A stretch of 19,447 nucleotides of DNA from a virus (taxonomy: Duplodnaviria > Heunggongvirae > Uroviricota > Caudoviricetes). Shown here one piece after another: positions 654 to 18,875 of this stretch. The stretch lies in IMG/VR virus record IMGVR_UViG_2563366807_000009, one strand, 5' to 3'. Each line of letters opens with the position of its first letter. Position 1 is the first letter of the stretch. The position numbers and the translations under genes are program-made. The notes beneath the pieces were generated by a model. That model did no database searches. It was not told the origin of the DNA and saw nothing but the letters and a program-made list of their open reading frames with translations.

Positions 654-730
654 GCGCCCTTAGCTCAGTTGGATAGAGCAACGACCTTCTAAGTCGTGGG
701 CCGCAGGTTCGAATCCTGCAGGGCGCGCCA
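654..730 (+). tRNA. argU: tRNA-Arg (anticodon UCU)
   Basis: 77-nt cloverleaf GCGCCCTTAGCTCAGTTGGATAGAGCAACGACCTTCTAAGTCGTGGGCCGCAGGTTCGAATCCTGCAGGGCGCGCCA with encoded CCA end, anticodon loop CT-TCT-AA, GTTCGAATC T-loop. An integrase gene follows immediately, as expected for a prophage attachment tRNA. Confidence 0.95.
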
Positions 731-5225: not shown

Positions 5226-5516
5226 TTAGTGATTCAGACCGTTGCCGCGTCCGTCGAGAAAAACTTCCACGAGCAAGTCACGGGTATAAGTGCGCTCAAT
5301 GCCGCGATGCAGATAAAGTCGTCCGCGTAAATTAGCTGATGCAGTCCAGGTACCATCTTTGCGTTTGACCAGCATTCCTGGCATGACCGCACCGCGATTA
5401 ACGGTCTGCGTTCCGTAATGTTGATGAACCATAAAAACTCCTGCCCGTAAGCTGGGCTGCTGAACATATAAAGACTTCTGCGCGTATTCAGGCGGTGGAT
5501 GGCCGCCGGTTGTCAT
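5226..5516 (-). CDS. hypothetical early-left protein in the kil/cIII position
   Basis: 96-aa ORF preceded by GAGG, first gene downstream of the putative PL. No arginine-rich N-terminus, so not N- or Nun-like. No family recognised. Confidence 0.45.
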   Translation of the reverse strand: MTTGGHPPPEYAQKSLYVQQPSLRAGVFMVHQHYGTQTVNRGAVMPGMLVKRKDGTWTASANLRGRLYLHRGIERTYTRDLLVEVFLDGRGNGLNH

Positions 5517-5707
5517 AACTAAGCCGCCTCGTTGAAGCGACTAAGGTATGAAATGTTGAGTTGATTTCAGCTGGTCACACCGACGTTCACGCGTCCGTTT
5601 CATCCCTCGCACTCCCCGAAGCCTGCTGAAATTCAAGCTGCGGATCTAAGCGGTCATCGCAACGGTGAATCAGGTAGTTGCCGTATCGTTGTGTTGTTGC
5701 GATGAAC

Positions 5708-5790
5708 TTATTTAAAACTATAGTTGTTTTATCGTCAACAACAAAAGTTGTTTTATTGGTTGTTTTAGATATAACTGGTTGTATTTAGGA
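5708..5790 (-). promoter_or_regulatory. OL/PL-like operator-promoter region
   Basis: The 17-mer AAAACTATAGTTGTTTT (5714-5730) is the reverse complement, with one mismatch, of the OR 17-mer at 8144-8160. Further GTTGTTTT-type half-sites lie at about 5746-5754, 5758-5767 and 5777-5785. Minus-strand TTGACG at 5738..5733 is a candidate -35. Confidence 0.5.
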
Positions 5791-5879: not shown

Positions 5880-5906
5880 AAAAGAAAACCCGGCACGGTG
5901 GCCGGG
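5880..5906 (-). terminator. Rho-independent terminator ending the cI-cassette operon
   Basis: Perfect 6-bp GC stem CCCGGC/GCCGGG (5889-5894 and 5901-5906), followed on the minus strand by TTTTCTTTT, 8 nt after the stop of the 310-aa ORF. Confidence 0.65.
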
Positions 5907-5914
5907 TAGCATCA

Positions 5915-6847
5915 CTATTCGATTTTTTTAACCATGTAGTTACGTCGTGATGTTCCTAATCTTTCATTGTGAATCTCAGAAACGCTTACTACGAGCGATA
6001 TTCGTTCACCAACTTTATATTTACTTTGAATTTCTCCTAACATATCAATCGGATAAGAAGCCTTTATTTTTCCAAGCTCGCTTGCAATCTCCAATTTCCC
6101 GTACATGGATAAAATAGCAAGTTCGCCTGATATATGCTCATCCGGTAGCTGAATGACCTTCGTTAAAGCTAAGCGAGCATTCAGTTTTTTTATATCTTCT
6201 GAAGAAATTGACACTTGTCTGGTACCATCACTTAAAGGTCCAATCCAAGTAAGATCAAAGTTAAGACTATATTTTTCGCACTCATTTATGATGTTTTTTA
6301 GGTTAGCTGTTGATTGCGAACCAATTTCGGCAATTTTAGCCGTGAATGTTTCTTCATCAATGGATGAGAGTAGTGCAAAAATCTCCTTAACAGCATGACT
6401 GGATACTGTTTCGATGAGCTCGCAAGAACCAGTAGAAAAAGTAACACCTAACTTCGTCGAACCTGGACGCAAGTCTGCCAATCTCATGTCTAATGATTTT
6501 TTAACATCAATCGGCACACGACTAGAATCTTTCCCAGATCCAAGTCGGTAAACTGCTTTCTGTACAAGGGATGCGAGATTACCTGAAATTACAGATAGAA
6601 TATCTAACGGAATAGACCCGAAATCGACCAAAACACCTTTTAATCTCAACTCCATGAAATCACGTAAAGGATGTTGGTTATCGATTGCACGTTGTCTCTC
6701 TCGGAGATCGCTCAGATGGGAGTCAAGTGATCTAAATATAATGTCATCAGCAAATGATCTCCCCTTATTTTGAGCAAGCAGATCCACATCGCGTTGAATG
6801 AACGCAATTCGCTCCTTGAGGGAGTTGAATGTTTTTTCTTCGCTCAT
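5915..6847 (-). CDS. hypothetical 310-aa protein, second gene of the rex-slot cassette; no family recognised
   Basis: Long ORF whose ATG (6847..6845) overlaps the upstream gene's TGA as ATGA. Visibly AT-rich compared with flanking lambda-like genes. Immediately followed by a terminator. No transmembrane segment or catalytic motif that I can assign. Confidence 0.75.
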   Translation of the reverse strand: MSEEKTFNSLKERIAFIQRDVDLLAQNKGRSFADDIIFRSLDSHLSDLRERQRAIDNQHPLRDFMELRLKGVLVDFGSIPLDILSVISGNLASLVQKAVYRLGSGKDSSRVPIDVKKSLDMRLADLRPGSTKLGVTFSTGSCELIETVSSHAVKEIFALLSSIDEETFTAKIAEIGSQSTANLKNIINECEKYSLNFDLTWIGPLSDGTRQVSISSEDIKKLNARLALTKVIQLPDEHISGELAILSMYGKLEIASELGKIKASYPIDMLGEIQSKYKVGERISLVVSVSEIHNERLGTSRRNYMVKKIE

Positions 6848-7317
6848 AACATTACCCTCACGAGGCCTTTAGGATTCTCCTTCCGATCAAAACCAAACCA
6901 CCCTCTCCAGTAACTTCGCCTTTCACTATAATCGATTTCTGGATGATTTTCAGGCAGCAAAAGAACGTCAATGCTGTAGTTTTCTTTAATAAAATCTCTA
7001 TTTAACAATGAGCTGACCAATGGCATCAGCGTGTTTGGCAAAGAGTTTAGGGCCAAATAATCGACGACCACGAGTATATCTATGTCATCAGGTTCAGGTT
7101 TCTCTGTAGTGAATGAACCATCGATCCACACTTCAGAGAAACATAGACACTGCTGATTAACAAGTTTAAATTGCTCAATAAGCTGTATAAAATTACAGTA
7201 TAGCATACTTCTTCTAACGGATTTTGGGAAGGTGTCGACACAAAGAGACTTGATGCCATCACTATCCATATCATGAAATCCTGCTGTAAGAAGAGGTGGG
7301 AAGCTAGGCTTTTCCAT
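6844..7317 (-). CDS. minimal nucleotidyltransferase-like protein (Pol-beta superfamily signature), first gene of the rex-slot cassette
   Basis: 157-aa ORF 81 bp downstream of the cI stop, AAGGA before the ATG. Contains GSFTTEKPEPDDIDILVVV, i.e. G-S, 9 residues, D-I-D, hydrophobic strand, with a later acidic strand YSIDVLLL. This is the hG[GS]-x9-13-Dh[DE]h pattern of MNT-type nucleotidyltransferases. Confidence 0.75.
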   Translation of the reverse strand: MEKPSFPPLLTAGFHDMDSDGIKSLCVDTFPKSVRRSMLYCNFIQLIEQFKLVNQQCLCFSEVWIDGSFTTEKPEPDDIDILVVVDYLALNSLPNTLMPLVSSLLNRDFIKENYSIDVLLLPENHPEIDYSERRSYWRGWFGFDRKENPKGLVRVML

Positions 7318-7398
7318 CCTAAGTCCTTGTTTATGCCATATAGTGTTCTATTTAATATTCTTGAAAAGAGTGTGCCTTAAAAAGCTACAGGCTAATTA

Positions 7399-8088
7399 TT
7401 AACCATGCTTCCTGTACGTCTGCGGCATGCTCCCAATAACCTTACCGAAGATGAACACCCGGTTCATCTCGTCTTTCTCGATCGGGTCCCACGGTGAGTA
7501 GCTTTTGTTATCAGAGATGACCAGCAGCTTATCCTTCATCATTTGCAGGCGCTTTACATGGGCTGTGTCGTCGTACAGAAACGCATAGATACCATCACCG
7601 TCGAAAGATTTAACTGTGATATCAACGAACAGCAGATCACCTGGTTCGATCGTTCCTGACATGCTGTCACCACGCACGTTAATGATGCGGATATTTTCCG
7701 CCTTCCTACCATCGAACATGTGACGAGCATCGTCAAACGAGTACTCAACCGAGCGTAGAACTTCTACAAACTCACGGTTGATGACTCCCGGCCCAGCACT
7801 GACTTCTATATCAAGAACGTCAATCTTGAAGTATTTGGAATGGCTGACAGTTGATTGTATTGGTTGCACTGTACTGTCTGACATATTTCCAACGCCAGAA
7901 GATAACCATTCTGCGCGCACACCCAAAGCGTTCGCGATCTCCACGATTTTAGTTGTTTGATTAGCTTTCCCTGTTTCGATTTTCTGAATAGCAGCCTGGC
8001 TAACCCCGACCAAATCCCCAAGCGCCTTTTGTGTAAGGCCTCGCGCTAATCTGGCTTCTTTAAGTCTTTCTGAGAGTGTTGTTTTCAT
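7399..8088 (-). CDS. cI: CI-like prophage repressor (XRE HTH plus S24 LexA-like autopeptidase domain)
   Basis: Start taken at ATG 8088 (MKTTLSERLKEARLARGLTQKALGDLVGVSQAAIQKIETGK... is the HTH). C-terminal VRGDSMSGTIEPGDLLFVD and AHVKRL supply the Ser/Lys dyad. Not lambda immunity by sequence. The six-frame ORF extends 22 codons upstream into the operator. Confidence 0.85.
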   Translation of the reverse strand: MKTTLSERLKEARLARGLTQKALGDLVGVSQAAIQKIETGKANQTTKIVEIANALGVRAEWLSSGVGNMSDSTVQPIQSTVSHSKYFKIDVLDIEVSAGPGVINREFVEVLRSVEYSFDDARHMFDGRKAENIRIINVRGDSMSGTIEPGDLLFVDITVKSFDGDGIYAFLYDDTAHVKRLQMMKDKLLVISDNKSYSPWDPIEKDEMNRVFIFGKVIGSMPQTYRKHG

Positions 8089-8093
8089 AGTCC

Positions 8094-8166
8094 AAATGTA
8101 CAACCAAGGTTTTATTCCATCAAACGAAAATGGTTGTTGACTAAAAACAACCATAGTTTTAATCTT
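8094..8166. promoter_or_regulatory. OR-like tripartite operator with divergent PRM/PR
   Basis: Three related 17-bp sites spaced about 24-27 bp apart: 8097-8113 (TGTACAACCAAGGTTTT), 8124-8140 (weaker, inverted) and 8144-8160 (AAAACAACCATAGTTTT). TTGACT at 8137-8142 is a -35 for rightward PR. Site 1 lies 9 bp from the cI ATG, suggesting a near-leaderless cI mRNA. Confidence 0.6.
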
Positions 8167-8192
8167 GATTCAAATTAACCACGGAGGTTGTT

Positions 8193-8423
8193 ATGAACCC
8201 AGCTATCAAAACAGCGATCAATATCGTTGGTTCACAAAAGAAACTGGGCGCTGCTTGCGAAGTTTCACAGCAGGCCGTCTATAAGTGGCTTCACAACAAA
8301 GCAAAGGTATCCCCTGAACATGTCGGCAGCATTGTTACGGCTACTGGTGGAGTAGTGAAGGCATACCAGATTCGCCCGGATCTTCCGAAGTTGTTTCCAC
8401 ACACCGAAAAGAACGCAGCTTAA
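8193..8423 (+). CDS. cro: Cro-like HTH regulator
   Basis: 76-aa first rightward ORF, GGAGG 7 nt upstream. HTH-like segment SQKKLGAACEVSQQAVYKWL. Divergent from cI across the operator. Confidence 0.8.
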   Translation: MNPAIKTAINIVGSQKKLGAACEVSQQAVYKWLHNKAKVSPEHVGSIVTATGGVVKAYQIRPDLPKLFPHTEKNAA

Positions 8424-8492
8424 ATTTCCATTTCACGCTCTTTAACAATAAGCAATCAACTTAACAGTCAATTCAAACTAAAGGAGTCAATT

Positions 8493-9032
8493 ATGCAACC
8501 ACTTCCATACCAACAGACTAGCGGATTTAGCCCGACTGCGGTGATAAATCGTTCTCAAACAAAACAGGTGCCAGGCCACGAAAAAATCCGTGATGCCGTC
8601 CGCGCCTGGTCGGCTGTAGATAATCAGGATGTCGTTGCCACACTCATTGTGAATGAGTATCGGGAGCAGGGCGGCGGCACCATCGATTTCCCTGATGATG
8701 TCAGCCGTGCACGCCAGAAGCTGTTCCGCTTCCTCGATAACAAATTCGATTCTGAAAAATACCGAAATAACGTGCGTGAACTGACCCCGGCAATTCTGGC
8801 GGTACTACCGCTGGAATATCGCGGTTACCTGGTTGAGCAGGATAGCTTCATGGCTAGGTTGGCTGAAATGGAAAAGGAACTCAGTGAGGCAAAACAGGCT
8901 GTCATTCTCAACGCACCACGCCACCAGAAACTGAAGGAAATTAGTGAAGGTATTGTATCGATGTTTCGTGTGGACCCAGATCTGGCTGGTCCATTGATGG
9001 CGATGGTTACTACCATGCTGGGGGCGATATGA
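8493..9032 (+). CDS. YdaT-family protein in the cII position
   Basis: 179 aa with AAGGAG Shine-Dalgarno. Segments EYREQGGG and TPAILAVLPLEYR resemble Rac YdaT as I recall it (EYLRQGGG, IPAILAILPREL). Not lambda cII. Confidence 0.65.
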   Translation: MQPLPYQQTSGFSPTAVINRSQTKQVPGHEKIRDAVRAWSAVDNQDVVATLIVNEYREQGGGTIDFPDDVSRARQKLFRFLDNKFDSEKYRNNVRELTPAILAVLPLEYRGYLVEQDSFMARLAEMEKELSEAKQAVILNAPRHQKLKEISEGIVSMFRVDPDLAGPLMAMVTTMLGAI

Positions 9033-9118
9033 CAGGTTCAGAAATGGCGAAAGCCGGTCTGCTGGAACAGAACCGACTTTCAGGTGCAAATCGTAACACA
9101 CTCATTGCGGGAGGAATT

Positions 9119-10048
9119 ATGGCAAACACTGCTGAGATATTCAATTTTCCAGTGCCGGATGCGGCACAAAAGGAGCCGCGCGTGGCAGATCTCGATGATG
9201 GTTATACGCGCATTGCAAATGAGTTGCTGGAAGCTGTGATGCTGGCCGGATTAACACAGCACCAGCTTCTGGTCTTCCTGGCTGTCATGCGCAAAACATA
9301 TGGCTTTAATAAAAAACTGGATTGGGTGAGCAACGAGCAACTTTCCGAATTGACCGGGATATTGCCGCACAAGTGTTCTGCTGCAAAAAGCGTTCTGGTA
9401 AAGCGTGGGATTCTTATTCAGAGCGGGCGGAATATCGGCATTAATAATGTGGTCAGTGAATGGTCAACATTACCCGAATCAGGTAAGAAAAATAAAGTTT
9501 ACCTGAAAGAGGTAAATTTACCTGAATCAGGTAAGAAAAGTTTACCCAAATCAGGTAAAGGCGTTTACCCGAATCAGGTAAACACAAAAGACAAACTAAC
9601 AAAAGACAATATAAAACCTTTTTCGTCCGAGAATTCTGGCGAATCCTCTGACCAGCCAGAAAACGATCTTCCTGTGGTGAAACCGGATGCTGCAATTCAG
9701 AGCGGCAGCAAGTGGGGGACAGCAGAAGACCTGACCGCCGCAGAGTGGATGTTTGACATGGTGAAGACTATCGCACCATCAGCCAGAAAACCGAATTTTG
9801 CTGGGTGGGCTAACGATATCCGCCTGATGCGTGAACGTGACGGACGTAACCACCGCGACATGTGCGTGCTGTTCCGCTGGGCCTGCCAGGACAACTTCTG
9901 GTCCGGTAACGTGCTGAGTCCGGCCAAACTCCGCGACAAGTGGACCCAGCTCGAAATCAACCGGAACAAGCAACAGGCTGGCGTGACAGTCGGCAAACCA
10001 AAACTCGACCTGACAAACACTGACTGGATTTACGGGGTGGATCTATGA
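9119..10048 (+). CDS. O: replication initiator O
   Basis: From ATG 9119 (GGAGG upstream): MANTAEIFNF...VADLDDGY... with a C-terminal half KWGTAEDLTAAEWMFDMVKTIAPSARKPNFAGWANDIRLMRERDGRNHRDMCVLFRW... matching lambda O as recalled. The N-terminal domain differs. An in-frame ATG at 9029 overlapping the upstream stop is an alternative start. Confidence 0.88.
   Translation: MANTAEIFNFPVPDAAQKEPRVADLDDGYTRIANELLEAVMLAGLTQHQLLVFLAVMRKTYGFNKKLDWVSNEQLSELTGILPHKCSAAKSVLVKRGILIQSGRNIGINNVVSEWSTLPESGKKNKVYLKEVNLPESGKKSLPKSGKGVYPNQVNTKDKLTKDNIKPFSSENSGESSDQPENDLPVVKPDAAIQSGSKWGTAEDLTAAEWMFDMVKTIAPSARKPNFAGWANDIRLMRERDGRNHRDMCVLFRWACQDNFWSGNVLSPAKLRDKWTQLEINRNKQQAGVTVGKPKLDLTNTDWIYGVDL
9470..9583 (+). 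repeat. ori iterons inside O, followed by an A-rich tract
   Basis: Five direct copies of a roughly 19-bp unit TTTACCYGAATCAGGTAAR at 9470-9487, 9498-9516 (degenerate), 9517-9535, 9541-9560 and 9564-9582, then ACACAAAAGACAAACTAACAAAAGACAATATAAAACC. Confidence 0.85.
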
Positions 10049-10746
10049 AAAACATCGCCGCACAGATGGTTAACTTTGACCGTGAGCAGATGCGTCGGAT
10101 CGCCAACAACATGCCGGAACAGTATGACGAAAAGCCACAGGTACAGCAGGTAGCGCAGATCATCAACGGTGTGTTCAGCCAGTTACTGGCAACTTTCCCG
10201 GCGAGCCTGGCTAATCGTGAGCAGAACGAACTGAACGAAATCCGCCGCCAGTGGGTTCTGGCTTTCCGGGAAAACGGGATCACCACGATGGAACAGGTTA
10301 ACGCAGGAATGCGCGTAGCCCGTCGGCAGAATCGACCATTCCTGCCATCCCCCGGACAGTTTGTAGCCTGGTGCCGGGAAGAAGCATCCGTTATTGCCGG
10401 ACTACCAAACACCAGCGAGCTGGTTGATATGGTTTACGAGTATTGCCGGAAGCGTGGCCTGTATCCGGATGCAGAGTCTTATCCGTGGAAATCAAACGCG
10501 CACTACTGGCTGGTTACCAACCTGTATCAGAACATGCGGGCCAATGCGCTTACTGATGCGGAATTACGGCGCAAGGCTGCCGATGAACTGACTTGTATGA
10601 CCGCGCGAATTAACCGTGGTGAGGCGATACCTGAACCAGTAAAACAACTTCCTGTCATGGGCGGTAGACCTCTAAATCGTGCACAGGCTCTGGCGAAGAT
10701 CGCAGAAATCAAAGCGAAGTTCGGACTGAAAGGAGCAACTGTATGA
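10045..10746 (+). CDS. P: replication protein P (DnaB helicase loader)
   Basis: 233 aa, MKNIAAQMVNFDREQMRRIANNMPEQYDEKPQVQQVAQIINGVFSQLLATFPASLANR..., matches lambda P as recalled. ATGA overlap with the O stop. Confidence 0.95.
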   Translation: MKNIAAQMVNFDREQMRRIANNMPEQYDEKPQVQQVAQIINGVFSQLLATFPASLANREQNELNEIRRQWVLAFRENGITTMEQVNAGMRVARRQNRPFLPSPGQFVAWCREEASVIAGLPNTSELVDMVYEYCRKRGLYPDAESYPWKSNAHYWLVTNLYQNMRANALTDAELRRKAADELTCMTARINRGEAIPEPVKQLPVMGGRPLNRAQALAKIAEIKAKFGLKGATV

Positions 10747-11045
10747 CGGGCAAAGAGGCAATTATTCATTACCTGGGGACGCATAAGAGCTTCTGTGCGC
10801 AGGACGTTGCTGCGGTAACAGGCGCAACAGTAACCAGTATAAATCAGGCTGCGGCTAAAATGGCACGGGCAGGAATCTTGGTCGTTGATGGTAAGGTCTG
10901 GCGAACGGTGTATTACCGGTTCGCTACCAGGGAAGAACGGGAAGGAAAGGTGAGCACGAATCTGATTTTCAAGGAGTGTCGCCAGAGTGCCGCGATGAAA
11001 CGAGTGTTGGCAGTGTATGGAGATATGAACTTAAACTTGCTGTGA
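10743..11045 (+). CDS. ren: Ren
   Basis: MTGKEAIIHYLGTHKSFCAQDVAAVTGATVTSINQAAAKMARAGILVVDGKVWRTVYYRFATREEREGK... matches lambda Ren as recalled. The last few residues diverge, marking a mosaic junction. Confidence 0.88.
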   Translation: MTGKEAIIHYLGTHKSFCAQDVAAVTGATVTSINQAAAKMARAGILVVDGKVWRTVYYRFATREEREGKVSTNLIFKECRQSAAMKRVLAVYGDMNLNLL

Positions 11046-11293
11046 CGGTTTTCATCGGTAACACACCATGTAATCTAGCAGTCAGCTTAGAAATAGGAGC
11101 GGCAGTTAAAGATTTTTCAGTTAGTAGAAAATTACTGTTATTGCAGGGATCTAATCACCGGAGAGTCGTTCCATTTGTCTTATGATTACCTGAAGTCCGT
11201 TAGTTCGTTGGTAATCACCGTTTTTGTTAGAGAAGTAAGCATCGCTGACAAAATATTCTCAACGATGCCTGCTTTATTGCTACTACAAATTAA

Positions 11294-12796
11294 TTAAATT
11301 GCATCTGCAAACTCTGGGGTTTTTCGCTCAGGTATAATTGATGAGTTGCTGTTGTCACTTTTTTTATTTTCATGATTACGAATAGCCAATGACTCATTAA
11401 AGTCTTTTGCGACTGCTGTCTCAATAAATTCAATTTCTGAATCAGAGTGTTTTTTAACAGCTTCTTTGATCTCATCCAGAGTAACATAGAAAAACTCTTT
11501 TCTACGATTTACAAGATTGACTCTCTTTTTATCGAAGACATCATGTAGTTTTTTTTCTAATGATGGAGCGTCCTCCGAATAAATCATGGCATGTACATCA
11601 AAAATAAAAGGAACAGATGCATCACCGAGCTCATTTACACGGTCTTGCGGATCAAGACGTCGTGTCATGCCTATTTTATAAACATTCTCCCCAAAAGAAC
11701 CTATGTTCGAAATAATATAAACATGACCTTGTTTGGTTTGTTGTGCCATGGATAATGCTCTTTGATGCTTTGATTCAGCCTGCGACAAACTCTGTTCTAG
11801 TTCGGCAATGCGATTTTCGAGGCGCTGCTTCATGTCACCAGTAACTTTTTCCATTTCCTTTCTTGCAGCTTCAATTGCTTTTTTATAACGGCGCTCTTCT
11901 GCCTCTGCGTCTTGCATGGCCTTTTCTATTTCTCGTTGTGCACGCTCCTCCTCTCTCATTTGTGCCCTTATTTCTGCCTGTTCTTCTTTTTCTTTCTGTT
12001 TTTGCTCACGATATTCATGGGTAAGCCACAATTCCTCAAGTTTTTTATTGAGGTATTTAGTGTTTATATATATGTGATTTTGCTCGTTTAGTTTATTTAT
12101 GGCCTCAAATGCCTTTGTGATGCGTTCTTCCATTTTAGTGATGTTTTTCCACGTGCAATTGCTAATTGCAGCATCACATTCATTATTAAATGCTCTAGTA
12201 GTTAGCCTGATATTTCTGTCTGTCATTTTTTTACCCTCTGCTCGAGAGCCTTCAACAGTCCATTGGGTTGTACAATATACTGCGCCAGAGTGGGTTTTAT
12301 CCCGCAGCATTAATTTCTGTTCATCCCTGATGGATTTTATTTTGTTTTTAAATTGCTCTGAATCTTCAAAATTAAAATGAGGTTCGTAAAATCCTAGTTC
12401 GGCTAGCTCAACATCTTCTGAATAAATAGAAATTTGCCTTACTAGTTTATCATATATTTCTTTCTTCTCTTTATAAGTTCTTCTTAGCTCTTGGATTTGT
12501 TTATTGATACCATCCATTTTTTCAATGGTGTTTGTTAGTTCATTATTGGCATTTTCTTTTACTTTTAGGGATTCTTCTTTTATTATGGAGCATTCTTGCT
12601 CTGTTTTCTCAATAAGCTTCTTACATTCTTCTTCTACATTAAAATAATCTGCAAAGCGAGATTTGTATTCTTCATTTTTTTGATTGCTATCACTTAATTC
12701 TAATTGTATTTTTTTGATGCGTTTGATTGCAGCTATATAAAGAACAAGAACAACCAATAAAAATATGATTGCAAGTAATAGAGGAGTTTGAGTCAT
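11294..12796 (-). CDS. membrane-anchored coiled-coil protein with C-terminal GIY-YIG/T5orf172-like nuclease domain; candidate anti-phage defence protein
   Basis: 500 aa, strongly AT-rich, convergent with ren. N-terminal hydrophobic helix (LLLAIIFLLVVLVLYIAAI), long E/K/R-rich predicted coiled coils, C-terminal GHVYIISNIGSFGENVYKIGMTRRLDPQDRVNELG...E, i.e. GIY...YIG...R...E spacing. AAGGAA Shine-Dalgarno before the ATG. Confidence 0.85.
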   Translation of the reverse strand: MTQTPLLLAIIFLLVVLVLYIAAIKRIKKIQLELSDSNQKNEEYKSRFADYFNVEEECKKLIEKTEQECSIIKEESLKVKENANNELTNTIEKMDGINKQIQELRRTYKEKKEIYDKLVRQISIYSEDVELAELGFYEPHFNFEDSEQFKNKIKSIRDEQKLMLRDKTHSGAVYCTTQWTVEGSRAEGKKMTDRNIRLTTRAFNNECDAAISNCTWKNITKMEERITKAFEAINKLNEQNHIYINTKYLNKKLEELWLTHEYREQKQKEKEEQAEIRAQMREEERAQREIEKAMQDAEAEERRYKKAIEAARKEMEKVTGDMKQRLENRIAELEQSLSQAESKHQRALSMAQQTKQGHVYIISNIGSFGENVYKIGMTRRLDPQDRVNELGDASVPFIFDVHAMIYSEDAPSLEKKLHDVFDKKRVNLVNRRKEFFYVTLDEIKEAVKKHSDSEIEFIETAVAKDFNESLAIRNHENKKSDNSNSSIIPERKTPEFADAI

Positions 12797-13104
12797 TCGT
12801 GCTATTCCTTACGGACAATTTAAGACGTTTTGTATTAAATCCTGTTCAATGTGTATGCGGGTGATTGCTACCGCTTACAATCTTCATAATTATCAGTTAG
12901 ATAGACTCGCTAGTAAATAATTTCATTTTTTGCAATATTCTTATTGAATATTTCAATTTATGAAATGAACTCTTTATCCTTTCAAGGTGAAAGGTTTCTT
13001 CTTCGGAAATATTTGCTCTCGTGTGACGTATAAAGACCTTTGATTTTCAAAAATCAGTAGGGAATAATATAGTTACTGTCGGCCTGAACACCCGGTGGTG
13101 GGGT

Positions 13105-13196
13105 TGCGCTAAACGGGGACGTTTATGCGCACACACAATCCAAACTCTCATCTCCATTCACAGATGCAGAAATGCACCTACGATTTTTTACATTCG
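13105..13196 (+). repeat. direct repeat copy A (about 92 bp)
   Basis: TGCGCTAAACGGGGACGTTTATGCGCACA... is identical over the first 29 nt to 15039 onward and shows only a few mismatches thereafter. Contains a 10-bp bulged hairpin GCGCTAAACG/CGTTTATGCGC with a GGGA loop. Confidence 0.85.
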
Positions 13197-13341
13197 GTGT
13201 TTTACTTCGACAGCCAGAATTGGGAGTCTCTATTCGTCTGGCGGCTAAAGGTGATATGGAAATCGTTATGTTTTGGCCTGAGGTAGTTGTAACTGTTGTA
13301 GCAGCTATGGATGTGATCATCATGGTGTCCATTTACTGGGG

Positions 13342-13452
13342 TTGACGACATGATTTATCCGGCGCTATATTCTGTGCGTTGCCGCAAAATCGGCACACGG
13401 GATTGGCGTCCCGGGATACTACTCAACGCATACCGCGTTAAGCGGTTTTTTT
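13342..13452 (+). ncRNA. candidate short terminated transcript (sRNA or attenuated leader) upstream of the Bro-N gene
   Basis: TTGACG (13342-13347), 18-bp spacer, TATATT (13366-13371). Downstream, a GC stem ACCGC/GCGGT with GTTAA loop (13432-13446) runs into a T tract to 13452. The region between is GC-rich and self-complementary. No ORF. Confidence 0.3.
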
Positions 13453-13608
13453 GTGCGCTAAGCACGGCTATGCCCAAATTATGGTGGGCTGTGTGAGGGC
13501 TTCTTCGGAAGCGCCGGGTTTGAGTAGCCGGTTACGCCAACCTTACACAGTTCACCACCAGTCGATTGGCGTCGTTGGTGGTGATGGTTAACCTGATGAG
13601 GTGATACT

Positions 13609-14217
13609 ATGACTACTCAATTAGCATTCCACAAAACGACGTTTACCCCGATTTGCCACAATAACAGAATTTGGCTTACTGCCACTGAAGTTGGTTTAGC
13701 ACTGGAATATGCGGACGATAAAGCAGTTCAGCGCATTTACTCTCGGCACTCAGATGAATTCACAGATATGATGACAAGGGTGGTCAAAGTGACCACCCCT
13801 CGTGGAATGCAGGAGTCTCGAGTATTTAGCCTTCGCGGAGCCCATTTGATCGCCATGTTTGCTCGTACTCCTGTGGCCAAAGAATTCCGCCGCTGGGTTC
13901 TGGATATTCTCGATCGAGAAGTTCAACAATCCCCAATCACAAAACAATTCACTGATAACGAACTTTGCACACTCGCCTGGTTATGGCGAGCAAGTGATAC
14001 GATGTTAACCGCCTGCCAGAACGTTACGCCCCTTCTTCAGGTCGCAGAGCATCGCGAAGCAGGTAGATTCACTTCAATCGAACAAGAATATCCTCGGATA
14101 CTCAACAGGGCGCGAGAAATCCTTGCCAGAGAAACGGCGCATGTAAAATTCCAACCGTGGCAGGATGATAAGTGGAGTCGTGTGTTACCATATTTCCGTC
14201 AGAATCTGTTGCAATAA
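13609..14217 (+). CDS. Bro-N domain antirepressor-like protein
   Basis: 202 aa, GAGGTG Shine-Dalgarno. N-terminal IWLTATEVGLALEYADDKAVQRIYSRHSDEF...RVFSLRGAHLIAMFARTPVAKEFRRWVLDIL fits the Bro-N/antirepressor pattern as I know it. Confidence 0.75.
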   Translation: MTTQLAFHKTTFTPICHNNRIWLTATEVGLALEYADDKAVQRIYSRHSDEFTDMMTRVVKVTTPRGMQESRVFSLRGAHLIAMFARTPVAKEFRRWVLDILDREVQQSPITKQFTDNELCTLAWLWRASDTMLTACQNVTPLLQVAEHREAGRFTSIEQEYPRILNRAREILARETAHVKFQPWQDDKWSRVLPYFRQNLLQ

Positions 14218-14236
14218 AGTCACTAGTTAGAAATAC

Positions 14237-14277
14237 TGCCAGCATTCTGCGATGACGGAAGTGCTGGCATTTTTTTT
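14237..14277 (+). terminator. Rho-independent terminator after the Bro-N gene
   Basis: 8-bp stem TGCCAGCA/TGCTGGCA (14237-14244 and 14262-14269) followed by eight T residues (14270-14277). Confidence 0.7.
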
Positions 14278-14452
14278 GGTAATGTGCGAGTCCATTTCAT
14301 AAAATACGGGTACTGGAACTGGACGATATAATCTAAAAGATACCATTATCAGTAGCATTAAAATCGCTATGTGCCGATACGGATATAAATTATATTGATT
14401 GTTCACATACCTTATTGGATATTACTGAGGGGTGTTTATATAAGGTGTAACG

Positions 14453-14962
14453 ATGATGTGGAACTTTGACAGTGCCGACTTAAGTGCAATAGCAGCAGGC
14501 ATTTCTGCGTTTGGCACATTAGCCGCAGCGGGGTCGGCGCTTGCAAGTTGGTGCACGTCAAAAAAAGCGCTGCAGCTACAAAATAGAGTTTACCTTTATG
14601 AGTCTTTAAAGGCTTGCGCTGAGAGAGCCAATTCATCAGCTAAAGATAAGCGCGGATCTGAATGGAGCGTTAATGATGCAGCGGATATCATCAGGTGCCT
14701 AGTACGGGCGATGGAGCTCATCAAGCAGGATAGCCAGCAGAAAGAAGGTAATCAGGCATTAATGTTGAAACAGTACTTTGTTAATCTGCTAATAATGGAA
14801 CTGTACGAGGAAGTTCATAACGGTGATGCGGCTGATTCTGTTTTTAAAAGTACGGAACCTACACAAGTACTTGATAACTTATGGAGCAAATGGCAGGAGG
14901 CTATAGCTTTTTTTGATATTTGGAATTACCCAGTTGCGACTGAGGAAGACTTGGCAGACTAA
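14453..14962 (+). CDS. hypothetical protein with N-terminal hydrophobic anchor (169 aa)
   Basis: AAGGTG Shine-Dalgarno. An N-terminal hydrophobic stretch of about 25 residues (LSAIAAGISAFGTLAAAGSALASW), remainder hydrophilic. Own promoter region after the upstream terminator. No family recognised. Confidence 0.7.
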   Translation: MMWNFDSADLSAIAAGISAFGTLAAAGSALASWCTSKKALQLQNRVYLYESLKACAERANSSAKDKRGSEWSVNDAADIIRCLVRAMELIKQDSQQKEGNQALMLKQYFVNLLIMELYEEVHNGDAADSVFKSTEPTQVLDNLWSKWQEAIAFFDIWNYPVATEEDLAD

Positions 14963-15038
14963 TTTTCAGCACATTTGATTTCCAATAATCAACCAGCCAT
15001 AATCATGCCATTGGAGCTTGAACAACTCCGGTGACTTC

Positions 15039-15130
15039 TGCGCTAAACGGGGACGTTTATGCGCACATACAATCCAAACTCTCTTCTCCCTTCACAGATG
15101 CAGAGATGCACCTGCGATTTTTTGCATCCA
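15039..15130 (+). repeat. direct repeat copy B, immediately upstream of ybcN
   Basis: Same unit as 13105-13196, including the bulged hairpin. Ends 26 bp before the ybcN GTG start. Confidence 0.85.
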
Positions 15131-15156
15131 GCGTTTGACCTCTGCGGAGGTGAAGC

Positions 15157-15612
15157 GTGAACCTCCCACAAGACGGCATCAAATTGCATCGTGGTAACTT
15201 CACCGCTATCGGCCAGCAGATCCAGCCTTATCTGGAGGAAGGCAAATGCTTTCGCATGGTGCTTAAACCGTGGCGTGAGAAACGCAGTCTTTCCCAGAAT
15301 GCACTCAGCCACATGTGGTACAGCGAAATCAGTGAATACCTCATCAGCAGGGGTAAAACGTTCGCCACTCCAGCTTGGGTAAAAGATGCTCTCAAACACA
15401 CATATCTCGGTTATGAAACCAAAGACCTGGTTGATGTCGTAACCGGTGAGATCACCACTATCCAGTCGTTACGCCATACCTCCGATCTTGATACCGGAGA
15501 GATGTATATCTTCCTGTGTAAGGTTGAAGCCTGGGCGGTGAATATTGGCTGCCACCTGACTATTCCGCAGAGCTGCGAGTTCCAGCTGCTGCGCGACAAG
15601 CAGGAGGCGTAA
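15157..15612 (+). CDS. ybcN: YbcN-like nin-region protein (reported DNA base-flipping protein)
   Basis: 151 aa from a GTG start with GGAGGTG 5 nt upstream. The sequence [62 protein letters not shown]... and its length match DLP12 YbcN as recalled. Confidence 0.85.
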
Positions 15613-17030: not shown

Positions 17031-17040
17031 TATGCCAATT

Positions 17041-17219
17041 GTTTACTAAAAATTATTAAAAATGGGGCGTTGAGACGCCCCCAAAAATAAAGGGTAATAT
17101 ATAACAGAAGGTTTATATAGTTAGAAGCAAGGTTGTGCTTCTAAAGGAAGTGGCTTGAGGGAGCCACTTATATGTTGGGGAGGCAACGCCTCCCGCAACA
17201 TATCTTTTTCGTAATCAGA
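17041..17219 (-). ncRNA. structured nmpC 3' UTR, the location reported for the IpeX regulatory RNA
   Basis: Directly downstream of the nmpC stop on the minus strand. Four stem-loops: 17170-17203, 17150-17167, 17123-17142 and 17064-17081, the last followed on the minus strand by a T-rich run. The IpeX assignment is from recalled literature on the DLP12 nmpC 3' region, not sequence comparison. Confidence 0.3.
17170..17209 (+). terminator. Rho-independent terminator downstream of quuD (tR'-like)
   Basis: Long hairpin ATATGTTGGGGAGGC-AACG-CCTCCC-G-CAACATAT (17170-17203) followed by CTTTTT (17204-17209), about 175 bp after the quuD stop. Confidence 0.5.
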
Positions 17220-18302
17220 TTAGAACTGGTAAACCAGACCTACAGCAACGATGTCATCAGTATCAATACCAGCTGTTTTGGTAAACTTACTATCGTCAAT
17301 TAAGTTGATTTTGTAATCAACAAAAGTGGACATGTTTTTATTAAAGTAGTAAGTAGCACCGACATCGACATACTTGACTAAGTCTCGGTCACCATGAACA
17401 CCAAGGTCTTTACCTTTTGACTGAAGGTAAGCAACAGATGGGCGCAGACCGAAGTCAAACTGATATTGTGCTACTGCTTCAAAGTTTTGTGCTTTGTTTG
17501 CAATATGGTTATTACCAAAAACGGTCATATTCTGAGTTTCAGAATATGTGGTAGCCAGATAGATATTGTTCGCATCATATTTCAGGCCTGCAGCCCATAC
17601 TTCCGCATTTTTGCCGGAGGCATTGAATTTGCTCTTACCATAGGCGACCTGACCGTCAGTGCGATCTGATTTAGCATAGGTTGCACCCACGCCGAATCCT
17701 TCATACTCATAAGTAGTGGAGAAACCGAAACCATCACCATTGGCTTCAGTTACGTCAGTGCGGTCATTTTTACCCTGATACTGAGCAGCAAAGTTCAGGC
17801 CATCGACCAGACCAAAGAAGTCGTTGTTACGATAAGTTGCAACACCAGTAGTGCGACCAGTCATGAACACATCTGTTTGGGTCCAGGTATCACCACCGAA
17901 TTCTGGCAGGACGTCAGTCCACGCACCGATGTCGTATGCTACACCGTAGTTACGGCCGTAATCGATTGAGCCGTAATCACCAAATTTCAGGCCTGCAAAT
18001 GCAAGACGGGTTTTGTCTTTGGAAGAACCTTGAGATTCAGCGCGGTTGCCTTTGAATTCATATTCCCACTGACCGAAACCAGTCAGTTGATCGTTGATTT
18101 GGGTTTCACCTTTGAAGCCAAGACGGGCATAAGTAGTATCACCATCATCTGCATCATTAGAGGAGAAGTAGTGCTTAGCATTAACTTTCCCGTACAGATC
18201 CAGCTTGTTACTGTCTTTATTATAAATTTCAGCTGCCTGAGCAGACATCGCCATCAGTACTGATGCAGCTACAGCAGAAATTGCCACTGTTAATTTTTTC
18301 AT
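17220..18302 (-). CDS. nmpC: outer-membrane porin, OmpC/OmpF family (NmpC/Lc-type), apparently intact
   Basis: 360 aa with signal peptide [29 protein letters not shown], porin hallmarks and C-terminal ...VAVGLVYQF. Uninterrupted here. Confidence 0.93.
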
Positions 18303-18730
18303 CGTGAGCCCTTTTTTTTGAACTATTATTAAAAAATGATGTCACTGCGCGATAAATATTCATCTAATCAATGTGATTATTTCAAGATGTAAGTTTTGGT
18401 TTCTCGTTTAATTTGTGAAGTAGATCTCTATTTTTATCTGAACTTTTTTCTATCGAATCCTATTCATGGCTCTTGGCTGAATAAAAATAAATCTATTAGC
18501 CAATTTATATTAATGGCTGTTATTTATAAGTGCTCTATAATTTGAAGGTTCAATTTAAATTGGCTAAAAATAACGCTGGAAATTATTTGTTGGTTATTTG
18601 TTGAGATTTGCTTATGTATTTGTAGTGGTGTTTTCAATACTCGGTAGCATTCTCGCAAATATCATTTAGTGGTTTACGTACGTAAAAAATTGGTTATGCT
18701 GTTAAGAGTGGTTACTTCGTCACACAGCTT

Positions 18731-18763
18731 AAACCCGCCGTCGAGCGGGTTTTTCCATTTTTT
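18731..18763 (+). terminator. plus-strand Rho-independent terminator-like element upstream of essD
   Basis: Stem AAACCCGC/GCGGGTTT (18731-18738 and 18745-18752) with CGTCGA loop, followed by TTTTCCATTTTTT. No plus-strand ORF precedes it. Confidence 0.45.
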
Positions 18764-18875
18764 GAGTCTCGATATTAGCTGATAACCCAATACCTGAGTT
18801 ATTCACTGACTCCGAGTCTGTTACGTTTCGTAGTATTCCCTCAATTTACACCCGCTTTGTCTGCGAGGTGGGGTT

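Follow-up and report, generated by a model that had tools for sequence, protein, structure and literature searches.

The window analysed here, a 19,447-nucleotide stretch of viral DNA, appears to belong to a lambdoid E. coli prophage with argU tRNA as its integration site, and carries two AT-rich islands set among the genes of the phage backbone (Table 1). The first, in what we term slot 1, lies directly downstream of a cI-like repressor gene and comprises two adjacent, co-oriented genes with a 4-nt overlap (6844-6847), whose products, M63A and M63B, correspond to the catalogued pair PDC-M63. The second, in slot 2, is flanked by ren and ybcN and is occupied by the gene for a 500-aa protein, SNIPE (or PD-lambda-1), beyond which a direct repeat leads into a second sub-module.

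Table 1. Features of the two accessory slots and their borders, in window coordinates.
Feature	Position	Strand	Remarks
oL-like operator palindromes, downstream of cassette	5712-5760	.	19 nt at 5712-5730 95% complementary to 8144-8162
Intrinsic-terminator-like hairpin and T run, slot-1 left edge	5888-5907	-	7-bp stem, 6 G-C pairs, then TTTCTTTT
Slot-1 cargo cassette PDC-M63	5908-7396	-	GC 0.390; bounded by homology breaks against five phages
M63B, 310 aa, partner protein	5915-6847	-	Helical N-terminus, poorly modelled middle, C-terminal OB fold
M63A, 157 aa, DUF6932, small Pol-beta-type nucleotidyltransferase	6844-7317	-	
cI-like repressor (HTH_3 and Peptidase_S24)	7399-8154	-	Pfam; stop codon forms slot-1 right edge
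oR-like operator palindrome between cI and cro	8119-8162	.	Inverted repeats I1, I2, I5
ren, slot-2 left flank	10743-11045	+	PHROG Ren-like; RefSeq 'protein ren'
Slot-2 SNIPE module (ORF and AT-rich flanks)	11021-13104	-	GC 0.354, ~2.1 kb
SNIPE / PD-lambda-1, 500 aa	11294-12796	-	N-terminal transmembrane helix, DUF4041, GIY-YIG (T5orf172) nuclease
Sigma-70-like promoter candidate upstream of SNIPE	12889-12917	-	TTTACT-17-GATAAT, 9/12, consensus match only
104-bp direct repeat, copy 1	13105-13208	+	SNIPE/Ant module boundary; 89% identical to 15039-15142
Slot-2 second sub-module	13380-14962	+	isrK sRNA, C4 antisense RNA, Ant/Rha-like gene (13609-14217), 169-aa gene
104-bp direct repeat, copy 2	15039-15142	+	Just upstream of ybcN
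ybcN, slot-2 right flank	15157-15612	+	Labelled NinB in PhiR5_1 and PhiR30_1

A sequence-only reading had judged both islands by eye to be far more AT-rich than the adjacent exo/bet/gam and O/P/ren genes, with long A/T runs and AT-biased codons, and sliding-window GC and codon-usage calculations bore this out on every count. GC content was 0.393 over 5915-7317 and 0.351 over 11294-12796, against 0.505-0.529 for exo/bet/gam and 0.489-0.533 for O/P/ren, and among ~1,200 windows of equal length elsewhere in the 19.4 kb none was as AT-rich (minima 0.398 and 0.395). Relative to the 25 other phage genes (mean 0.486, sd 0.031, minimum 0.430), all three island genes lay below the observed range, with z-scores of -3.2 for M63B (GC 0.389), -2.8 for M63A (0.399) and -4.4 for SNIPE (0.351). 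Third-position GC (GC3) was compared with an expectation computed analytically from the amino-acid content of each protein and background synonymous usage, and reached 0.317 for M63B where 0.489 was expected (z = -6.2), 0.391 for M63A against 0.512 (z = -3.1) and 0.281 for SNIPE against 0.487 (z = -9.6); as GC3 fell below the amino-acid expectation in all three genes, the codon bias is not an amino-acid effect. Runs of at least six A/T occurred at 16.4/kb in island 1 and 28.6/kb in island 2, compared with ~6/kb in exo-gam and O-ren. The span 5915-12796 is to be understood as two separate islands rather than one continuous one, since the intervening 7318-11293 (cI, cro, cII-like, O, P and ren) has a normal GC of 0.480. 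Island 2 outreaches its ORF, extending over about 11021-13104 through AT-rich non-coding flanks (GC 0.383 at 11046-11293 and 0.342 at 12797-13100). Outside both islands, further AT-rich spots were a porin gene at 17220-18302 (GC3 z = -4.1), its flank at 18303-18875 (GC 0.342) and, at 1-411, the end of the host gene fimZ.

The edges of slot 1 are sharp to the nucleotide, with the cI stop codon (7397-7399) on one side and on the other the terminator-like hairpin, which lies within the flank common to all slot-1 variants and thus belongs to the conserved backbone. Homology with five isolated phages, at 96.7-99.6% in the flanks, ends at 5906-5908 and restarts at 7397-7399, and between these breakpoints the five contain either a different cassette or just 119 bp. 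Across phages the slot has been filled with PDC-M63, PDC-M66 (HipA/HipD), PDC-M11 (GevT/GevA), a lipoprotein, or the 119 bp without cargo. PADLOC candidate models match all three two-gene cargos (M63, M66 and M11); a literature search on GevT, GevA and HipD retrieved only unrelated papers. PDC-M63 itself recurs at ≥99% identity in 98 of 5426 complete E. coli genomes and follows no fewer than three distinct repressor alleles. The cI-like gene of this window has RefSeq coordinates of 7399-8088. The oL-like palindromes, with AACAAC/GTTGTT half-sites recurring 24 nt apart, and the oR-like palindrome enclose cI and the cassette in the way that oL and oR enclose cI-rexA-rexB in lambda, so that the name 'rex slot' used in the sequence-only reading is positionally right. 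Consensus scanning between cI and the cassette revealed neither a terminator nor a promoter-like site, and on that basis M63AB most likely shares the repressor's transcript in the lysogen, in the manner of lambda rexAB.

The likeness to lambda is one of position. M63AB, like rexA-rexB, follows cI in the same orientation, is enclosed by oR and oL and precedes a terminator, and both are pairs of AT-rich genes (GC 0.40 for rexA and 0.43 for rexB). RexB is a membrane protein, whereas neither M63A nor M63B contains a transmembrane segment (maximum hydropathy 1.26 and 1.54), and the biochemistry of a nucleotidyltransferase paired with an OB-fold protein differs from that of RexAB. RexA, the one Rex protein compared directly, gave BLASTP E-values of 0.12 or worse, rejecting M63AB as RexA homologues, and no Rex family appeared among the Pfam or PHROG matches.

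In slot 2, where lambda has a ren-ninB gap of 73 bp, homology with three phages breaks on the left at 11009-11020, and the SNIPE module ends on the right where the 104-bp repeat begins (13105). Relatives hold SNIPE, an acyltransferase with a lipoprotein, qacE with a recombinase and an esterase, or small ORFs in this place. The SNIPE module occurs in 132 of 5426 complete E. coli genomes, and in some genomes IS5 or IS1 insertions lie in or beside the gene; strain M23917 has the small ORF and then ybcN immediately after SNIPE. The second sub-module, missing from PhiR30_1 and 4A7, has a near-normal GC of 0.457 (13209-14973), with Rfam matches to isrK (58.7 bits) and C4 (74.8 bits) and a PHROG match to the anti-repressor Ant. 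Rfam scanning identified no RNA family inside either island, and a terminator scan showed no clear candidate for SNIPE.

Comparison with related prophages thus finds both slots variable and the backbone conserved, with relatives whose flanks are 95-99% identical holding other cargo at both places, and the island genes do not behave as fixed backbone. This supports the earlier view of the islands as acquired cargo at lambdoid accessory positions, here the cI-to-oL interval of rexAB and the interval from ren to ybcN/ninB. We consider it very probable that both are horizontally exchanged accessory ('moron') cassettes at two lambdoid recombination hot spots, with SNIPE in slot 2 and PDC-M63, co-transcribed with cI, in slot 1. 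Lambdoid morons, of which HK97 gp15 is an example, are likewise extra genes of deviant composition inserted between conserved neighbours, expressed from the prophage and often protective against superinfection; both islands deviate in nucleotide composition, and both slots are occupied or vacant between the same neighbours in different phages. Slot 1 departs from the classic self-contained moron in that it lacks a promoter-like site and borrows the backbone terminator. It looks like an 'expression slot' of the repressor operon, in which any inserted cargo would automatically be expressed with that operon. The phenomenon of AT-rich, swappable defence cargo in lambdoid prophages is already known and follows a textbook pattern: phage and satellite hot spots are reportedly the subject of Rousset et al. 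2022, and Brenes & Laub 2025 (Cell Host Microbe) probably describes the PhiR phages and both slots. The prophage studied here illustrates cleanly how lambdoid prophages keep defence genes in fixed 'plug-in' positions, and annotators can take a local fall in GC in the cI-oL or the ren-ninB interval as a good sign of defence cargo.

Where the cargo was acquired from is a separate matter. The sequence-only reading had taken the composition as the signature of a different genomic background, a view that calls for caution, every alternative cargo in both slots being AT-rich as well (GC 0.35-0.40). These values, together with those of the 119-bp 'empty' filler (0.345) and of lambda rexA (0.40), rexB (0.43) and sieB (0.39), indicate that low GC may be a shared property of the mobile pool rather than the mark of one particular donor. 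That AT-richness is a general trait of the enterobacterial phage accessory and defence gene pool, and not the fingerprint of a single low-GC donor, has in our estimation somewhat less than an even chance of being correct; such a trait could arise from AT-biased mutation under relaxed selection, or be tolerated because of H-NS silencing. M63 homologues in three Enterobacterales contexts fit such a pool, at 0.36-0.39 against flanks of 0.49-0.53, whereas the M63 cassettes of Pseudoalteromonas (0.341, surroundings 0.35) and Bermanella (0.430, surroundings 0.447) match their genomic neighbourhood. The latter are compatible with an origin of M63 in low-GC gammaproteobacteria, and the pool and donor views can both hold; no donor can be named from low GC alone. 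It is highly improbable that low GC instead reflects protein composition or function, such as the Lys/Glu/Asn-rich coiled-coil linker of SNIPE: GC at the first two codon positions is indeed low in SNIPE (0.388, where most backbone genes have 0.45-0.52), but the GC3 deficits, the AT-rich non-coding flanks and the presence or absence of the segments between identical flanks all speak against it, and the GC3 test and presence/absence polymorphism refute protein composition as the sole cause.

Judged by its sequence, the slot-2 protein is the already characterised anti-phage nuclease SNIPE, whose mechanism was described by Saxton et al. (Nature 2026, PMC13190303) and whose alternative name, PD-lambda-1, comes from PADLOC-DB. 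It is 100% identical to a PhiR26_1 protein annotated 'PD-lambda-1' and matches the 491-position PADLOC PD-Lambda-1 model over residues 1-485 (658 bits). Pfam places DUF4041 (PF13250) at residues 198-252 (70.4 bits) and T5orf172 (62 bits) and MUG113 (69 bits) at residues 357-449, with a glutamate at the catalytic position, E414. A hydrophobic segment begins at residue 6 (best 19-residue window, Kyte-Doolittle mean 3.37), in keeping with the transmembrane domain near the N-terminus of SNIPE (PMC13190303), and all nine residues named in that study stand at identical numbers. Length and architecture are the same, and there is no detectable difference between the proteins; what this locus adds is the setting within a prophage, where ren and ybcN enclose a 2.1-kb AT-rich module with the 104-bp repeat as its right border. 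SNIPE is a membrane-anchored GIY-YIG nuclease shown experimentally to cleave incoming DNA of lambda and other siphoviruses during injection (PMC13190303). Transferred by sequence identity, the mechanism would shield the lysogen while leaving the resident prophage unharmed.

The pairing of a DUF6932 nucleotidyltransferase with an OB-fold partner is conserved across Gammaproteobacteria. The slot-1 pair shows no difference from PADLOC PDC-M63, matching its A and B models at 144 and 142 bits. M63A has the hG[GS] motif, the DxD, the third acidic residue and the fold of a nucleotidyltransferase, with D78 and D80 as its predicted catalytic residues, and its closest structural matches include MNTs. 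In M63B the OB fold is the confident domain; no recognisable catalytic motif was found, nor any invariant Asp, Glu or His among nine diverse partners, although a PGS loop (S130) is invariant. The two genes are retained together in Enterobacterales and as far away as Pseudoalteromonas and Bermanella, mostly with the 4-nt overlap, and the partners are 30% identical (E = 1e-44). The pair lies in differing contexts: lambdoid immunity regions in two cases, an integrative element in another and a Tn3/mer island in a further one. A search of 1.84 billion representatives with an M63B profile recovered 279 clusters, nearly all full-length ones of ~300-330 aa, none with a domain fusion that would reveal function. 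Searches of the PDB with M63A and M63B, by single sequence and by profile, gave no significant match, a SAVED-domain match (E = 1.1) and an LPXTG-protein match (E = 0.007 over 35 residues) being dropped as noise; nothing came up in the literature under the protein accessions or the PHROG id.

A close known arrangement is the HEPN-MNT type VII toxin-antitoxin system (for example PDB 7ae9, 8xeh, HI0073/HI0074), in which a small Pol-beta nucleotidyltransferase lies upstream of, and overlaps, its partner, as M63A does. Unlike that enzyme, M63A has additional helices at its N-terminus and an RSYWRGWFGF motif at its C-terminus, and while the HEPN partner carries a conserved Rx4-6H, the 310-aa, OB-fold M63B does not: its sole RxxxxH candidate (R39..H44) is not conserved and, with no invariant His in the nine partners, M63B was rejected as a HEPN RNase.

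PDC-M63 is a catalogued bioinformatic defence candidate and as such unproven. M63A might act as a minimal nucleotidyltransferase that nucleotidylylates M63B, or nucleic acid held by its OB fold, with an outcome perhaps akin to a type VII toxin-antitoxin or abortive-infection switch answering a superinfecting phage. We propose tentatively, and at a rather low probability, that PDC-M63 is a functional new immunity module of the repressor operon, a nucleotidyltransferase with an OB-fold partner directed mainly against temperate phages absent from the published screen; if true, it would define a non-HEPN branch of nucleotidyltransferase-controlled toxin-antitoxin and abortive-infection systems. 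The only published test, in which PDC-M63AB was deleted in its native host NILS69 and challenged with 10 virulent phages, gave no defence (bioRxiv 10.1101/2024.12.20.629700). That result, the resemblance of M63A to MNT antitoxins and the labelling of neighbouring slot variants by their depositors as toxin-antitoxin pairs would suit a cassette with no part in phage defence, an addiction-type toxin-antitoxin or lysogeny-related function riding in the cI operon, which we regard as possible if somewhat unlikely. The negative study, however, covered just those virulent phages, and PDC-M63 both holds the rexAB position, as do other defence candidates, and occurs in non-phage mobile islands.

The sequence-only reading took two segments of this prophage, the cassette in the rexAB position of lambda (island 1) and the 500-aa gene beyond ren (island 2), to be AT-rich morons acquired from a different genomic background. 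The observation is real and that interpretation right, AT-rich exchangeable cargo being a well-known property of lambdoid phages. GC is 0.453 across the entire window, but 0.389 and 0.399 in the cassette genes M63B and M63A and 0.351 in the 500-aa gene, against 0.505-0.529 in exo/bet/gam and 0.489-0.533 in O/P/ren. The remaining 25 phage genes average 0.486 (sd 0.031), which places these values at z = -3.2, -2.8 and -4.4, and no same-length window elsewhere in the sequence is equally AT-rich. The long A/T runs seen by eye are indeed 3-5 times denser in the islands than in the flanks. AT-biased codons were likewise borne out: when expected GC3 was calculated from the amino acids that each gene encodes and from how the background genes use synonymous codons, the observed values were 0.317 against 0.489 in M63B (z = -6.2), 0.391 against 0.512 in M63A (z = -3.1) and 0.281 against 0.487 in the 500-aa gene (z = -9.6), dismissing protein composition as the sole cause of low GC in all three. 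The boundaries required revision. Positions 5915-12796 hold two islands and not a single AT-rich stretch, as the ~4 kb of immunity and replication genes between them (7318-11293) has normal GC (0.480), and island 2 exceeds its ORF, its non-coding flanks extending it to about 11021-13104 (GC 0.354).

Features of the prophage and its accessory slots
Feature	Position	Strand	Match
tRNA-Arg	654-730		
Operator-like palindrome, left	5712-5760		
Strong terminator hairpin	5888-5907		
M63B	5915-6847	-	PADLOC PDC-M63B, 142 bits
M63A	6844-7317	-	PADLOC PDC-M63A, 144 bits
Operator-like palindrome, right	8119-8162		
YdaT/cII-like gene	8493-9032		Pfam YdaT_toxin, 103 bits; PHROG cII-like activator family
500-aa gene (SNIPE)	11294-12796	-	PADLOC PD-Lambda-1, 658 bits, end to end
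104-bp direct repeat, two copies	13105-13208, 15039-15142		
isrK Hfq-binding sRNA	13380-13452		Rfam, 58.7 bits
C4 antisense RNA	13477-13562		Rfam, 74.8 bits
Ant/Rha-like anti-repressor gene	13609-14217		
Porin gene	17220-18302	-	Pfam Porin_1, 505 bits

The window opens within the host gene fimZ, followed by tRNA-Arg and a lambdoid prophage in the order intD, exo-bet-gam-kil, cI-like repressor, cro, YdaT/cII-like gene, O, P, ren, ybcN-ninE-ybcO-rusA-quuD, porin gene and essD; at least 80% of it is present at ~99.9% identity in 53 of 5426 complete E. coli genomes. The double family match of the gene in the cII position recalls the ydaS/ydaT region of the Rac prophage. The interval from the oL-like operators to kil (5433-5711) showed no N-like antiterminator ORF, its largest ORFs being ≤36 aa; in lambda the equivalent stretch is occupied by N, sieB, ral, ea10 and cIII.

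Both islands occupy lambdoid accessory positions, as proposed, and comparison with related phages shows both slots to be sharply variable. In five isolated phages with flanks 96.7-99.6% identical to the window, homology around slot 1 stops at 5906-5908, the end of the terminator hairpin, and restarts at 7397-7399, at the cI stop codon. PhiR34_1 carries 119 bp of filler there, PhiR5_1 a HipA-like kinase and DUF3037 protein (annotated HipA/HipD; PADLOC PDC-M66 match), PhiR47_2 and IdasGreatGrand GevT/GevA with an ASCH domain (PDC-M11 match), and PhiR26_1 a BamE-like lipoprotein. M63B is identical in PhiR30_1, behind a repressor differing in its N-terminal part, and in strain NGF1 the cassette follows a further repressor allele. 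The palindromes bracketing cI and the cassette mirror oL and oR around cI-rexA-rexB of lambda; a sequence scan found no terminator or promoter-like site between cI and M63A, so that joint transcription of cI and M63AB is the most parsimonious inference.

Slot 2 lies between ren and ybcN; the ren-ninB interval of lambda is 73 bp. Homology with PhiR5_1, PhiR30_1 and 4A7 is lost at 11009-11020, close to the 3' end of ren, and picks up again at 13831 or 14974, the alternatives across these phages being small ORFs with a Rha variant, an acyltransferase with a lipoprotein, and qacE with a serine recombinase and an esterase. The first copy of the direct repeat, whose two copies are 89% identical, bounds the SNIPE module on the right. 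Duplicating the sequence ahead of ybcN exactly at module boundaries, this repeat is likely a recombination linker for module exchange; in strain M23917, SNIPE directly adjoins the stretch in front of ybcN. The remainder of the slot, 13380-14962, is a distinct sub-module whose GC is close to normal, with isrK and C4 RNAs immediately upstream of the anti-repressor gene. Judged by sequence, these RNAs and the gene form a putative anti-repressor control module of the P1/P7 immI-like or Gifsy isrK type in a lambdoid nin region.

Neither cargo is new. Island 1 is identified by its profile matches as PDC-M63, already catalogued as a candidate defence system, its two overlapping genes encoding a DUF6932 nucleotidyltransferase (M63A) and an OB-fold protein (M63B). 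Among 1.84 billion representatives, an M63B profile search found just 279 clusters; the full-length ones are nearly all about 300-330 aa, and hence no fusions are seen. The pair is kept in Edwardsiella, where the integrative element is a different one, in Bermanella, in a Tn3/mer island of Pseudoalteromonas, and in a lambdoid phage from a metagenome, where a cI-like gene once more stands immediately before it. In Treponema-like contigs the gene downstream of the nucleotidyltransferase encodes another kind of partner, of 92 aa and not of the 310-aa M63B type, so the enzyme appears to swap partners. The single experimental report found in the literature deleted PDC-M63AB in its native host, with no effect on 10 virulent phages (bioRxiv 10.1101/2024.12.20.629700). 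What this nucleotidyltransferase and OB-fold pair does is the remaining interest.

Island 2 corresponds to SNIPE, already characterised, its predicted protein being identical to the studied allele. PD-lambda-1 was renamed SNIPE in a 2026 Nature paper, which describes a protein anchored in the inner membrane that combines a transmembrane domain with DUF4041 and a GIY-YIG nuclease, associates with the tape measure protein and with ManYZ, and cleaves phage DNA during injection while leaving an induced resident prophage unaffected (PMC13190303). The 500-aa protein has DUF4041 and T5orf172/MUG113 domains, a strongly hydrophobic segment from residue 6, and all nine residues named in that work (E414, E223, W257, L253, E264, K305, I308, T319 and N250; PMC13190303) at identical positions. 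It is 100% identical to the 'PD-lambda-1'-annotated protein of PhiR26_1, and some RefSeq genomes label it 'SNIPE associated domain-containing protein'. Of the 5426 genomes, 132 contain the module, usually adjoining ren. Some of them have an IS5 or IS1 within or beside the gene. The SNIPE match in NZ_CM144251.1, NZ_CP043406.1 and NZ_CP101915.1 is broken into at least two parts, and a transposase of IS5 or IS1 is annotated beneath it. In NZ_CM144251.1 and NZ_CP101915.1 the annotation gives the gene as two separate fragments, which suggests occasional inactivation.

Exchangeable cargo is thus upheld, whilst the 'different genomic background' fits either of two sources. Origin in low-GC gammaproteobacteria is consistent with M63 homologues that blend into their surroundings in Pseudoalteromonas (GC 0.34) and stand out from them in Enterobacterales (0.36-0.39). 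A mobile accessory pool that is AT-rich in general would fit too, given that all alternative cargos have a GC of 0.35-0.40 against 0.46-0.54 in their flanks, and lambda rexA, rexB and sieB are likewise AT-rich.

The porin region (17031-18875) is a third moron-like island, outside the original finding: the gene, flanked by the Q-like antiterminator and the lysis genes, has low GC3 (z = -4.1), and the sequence around it is AT-rich (GC 0.342 at 18303-18875).
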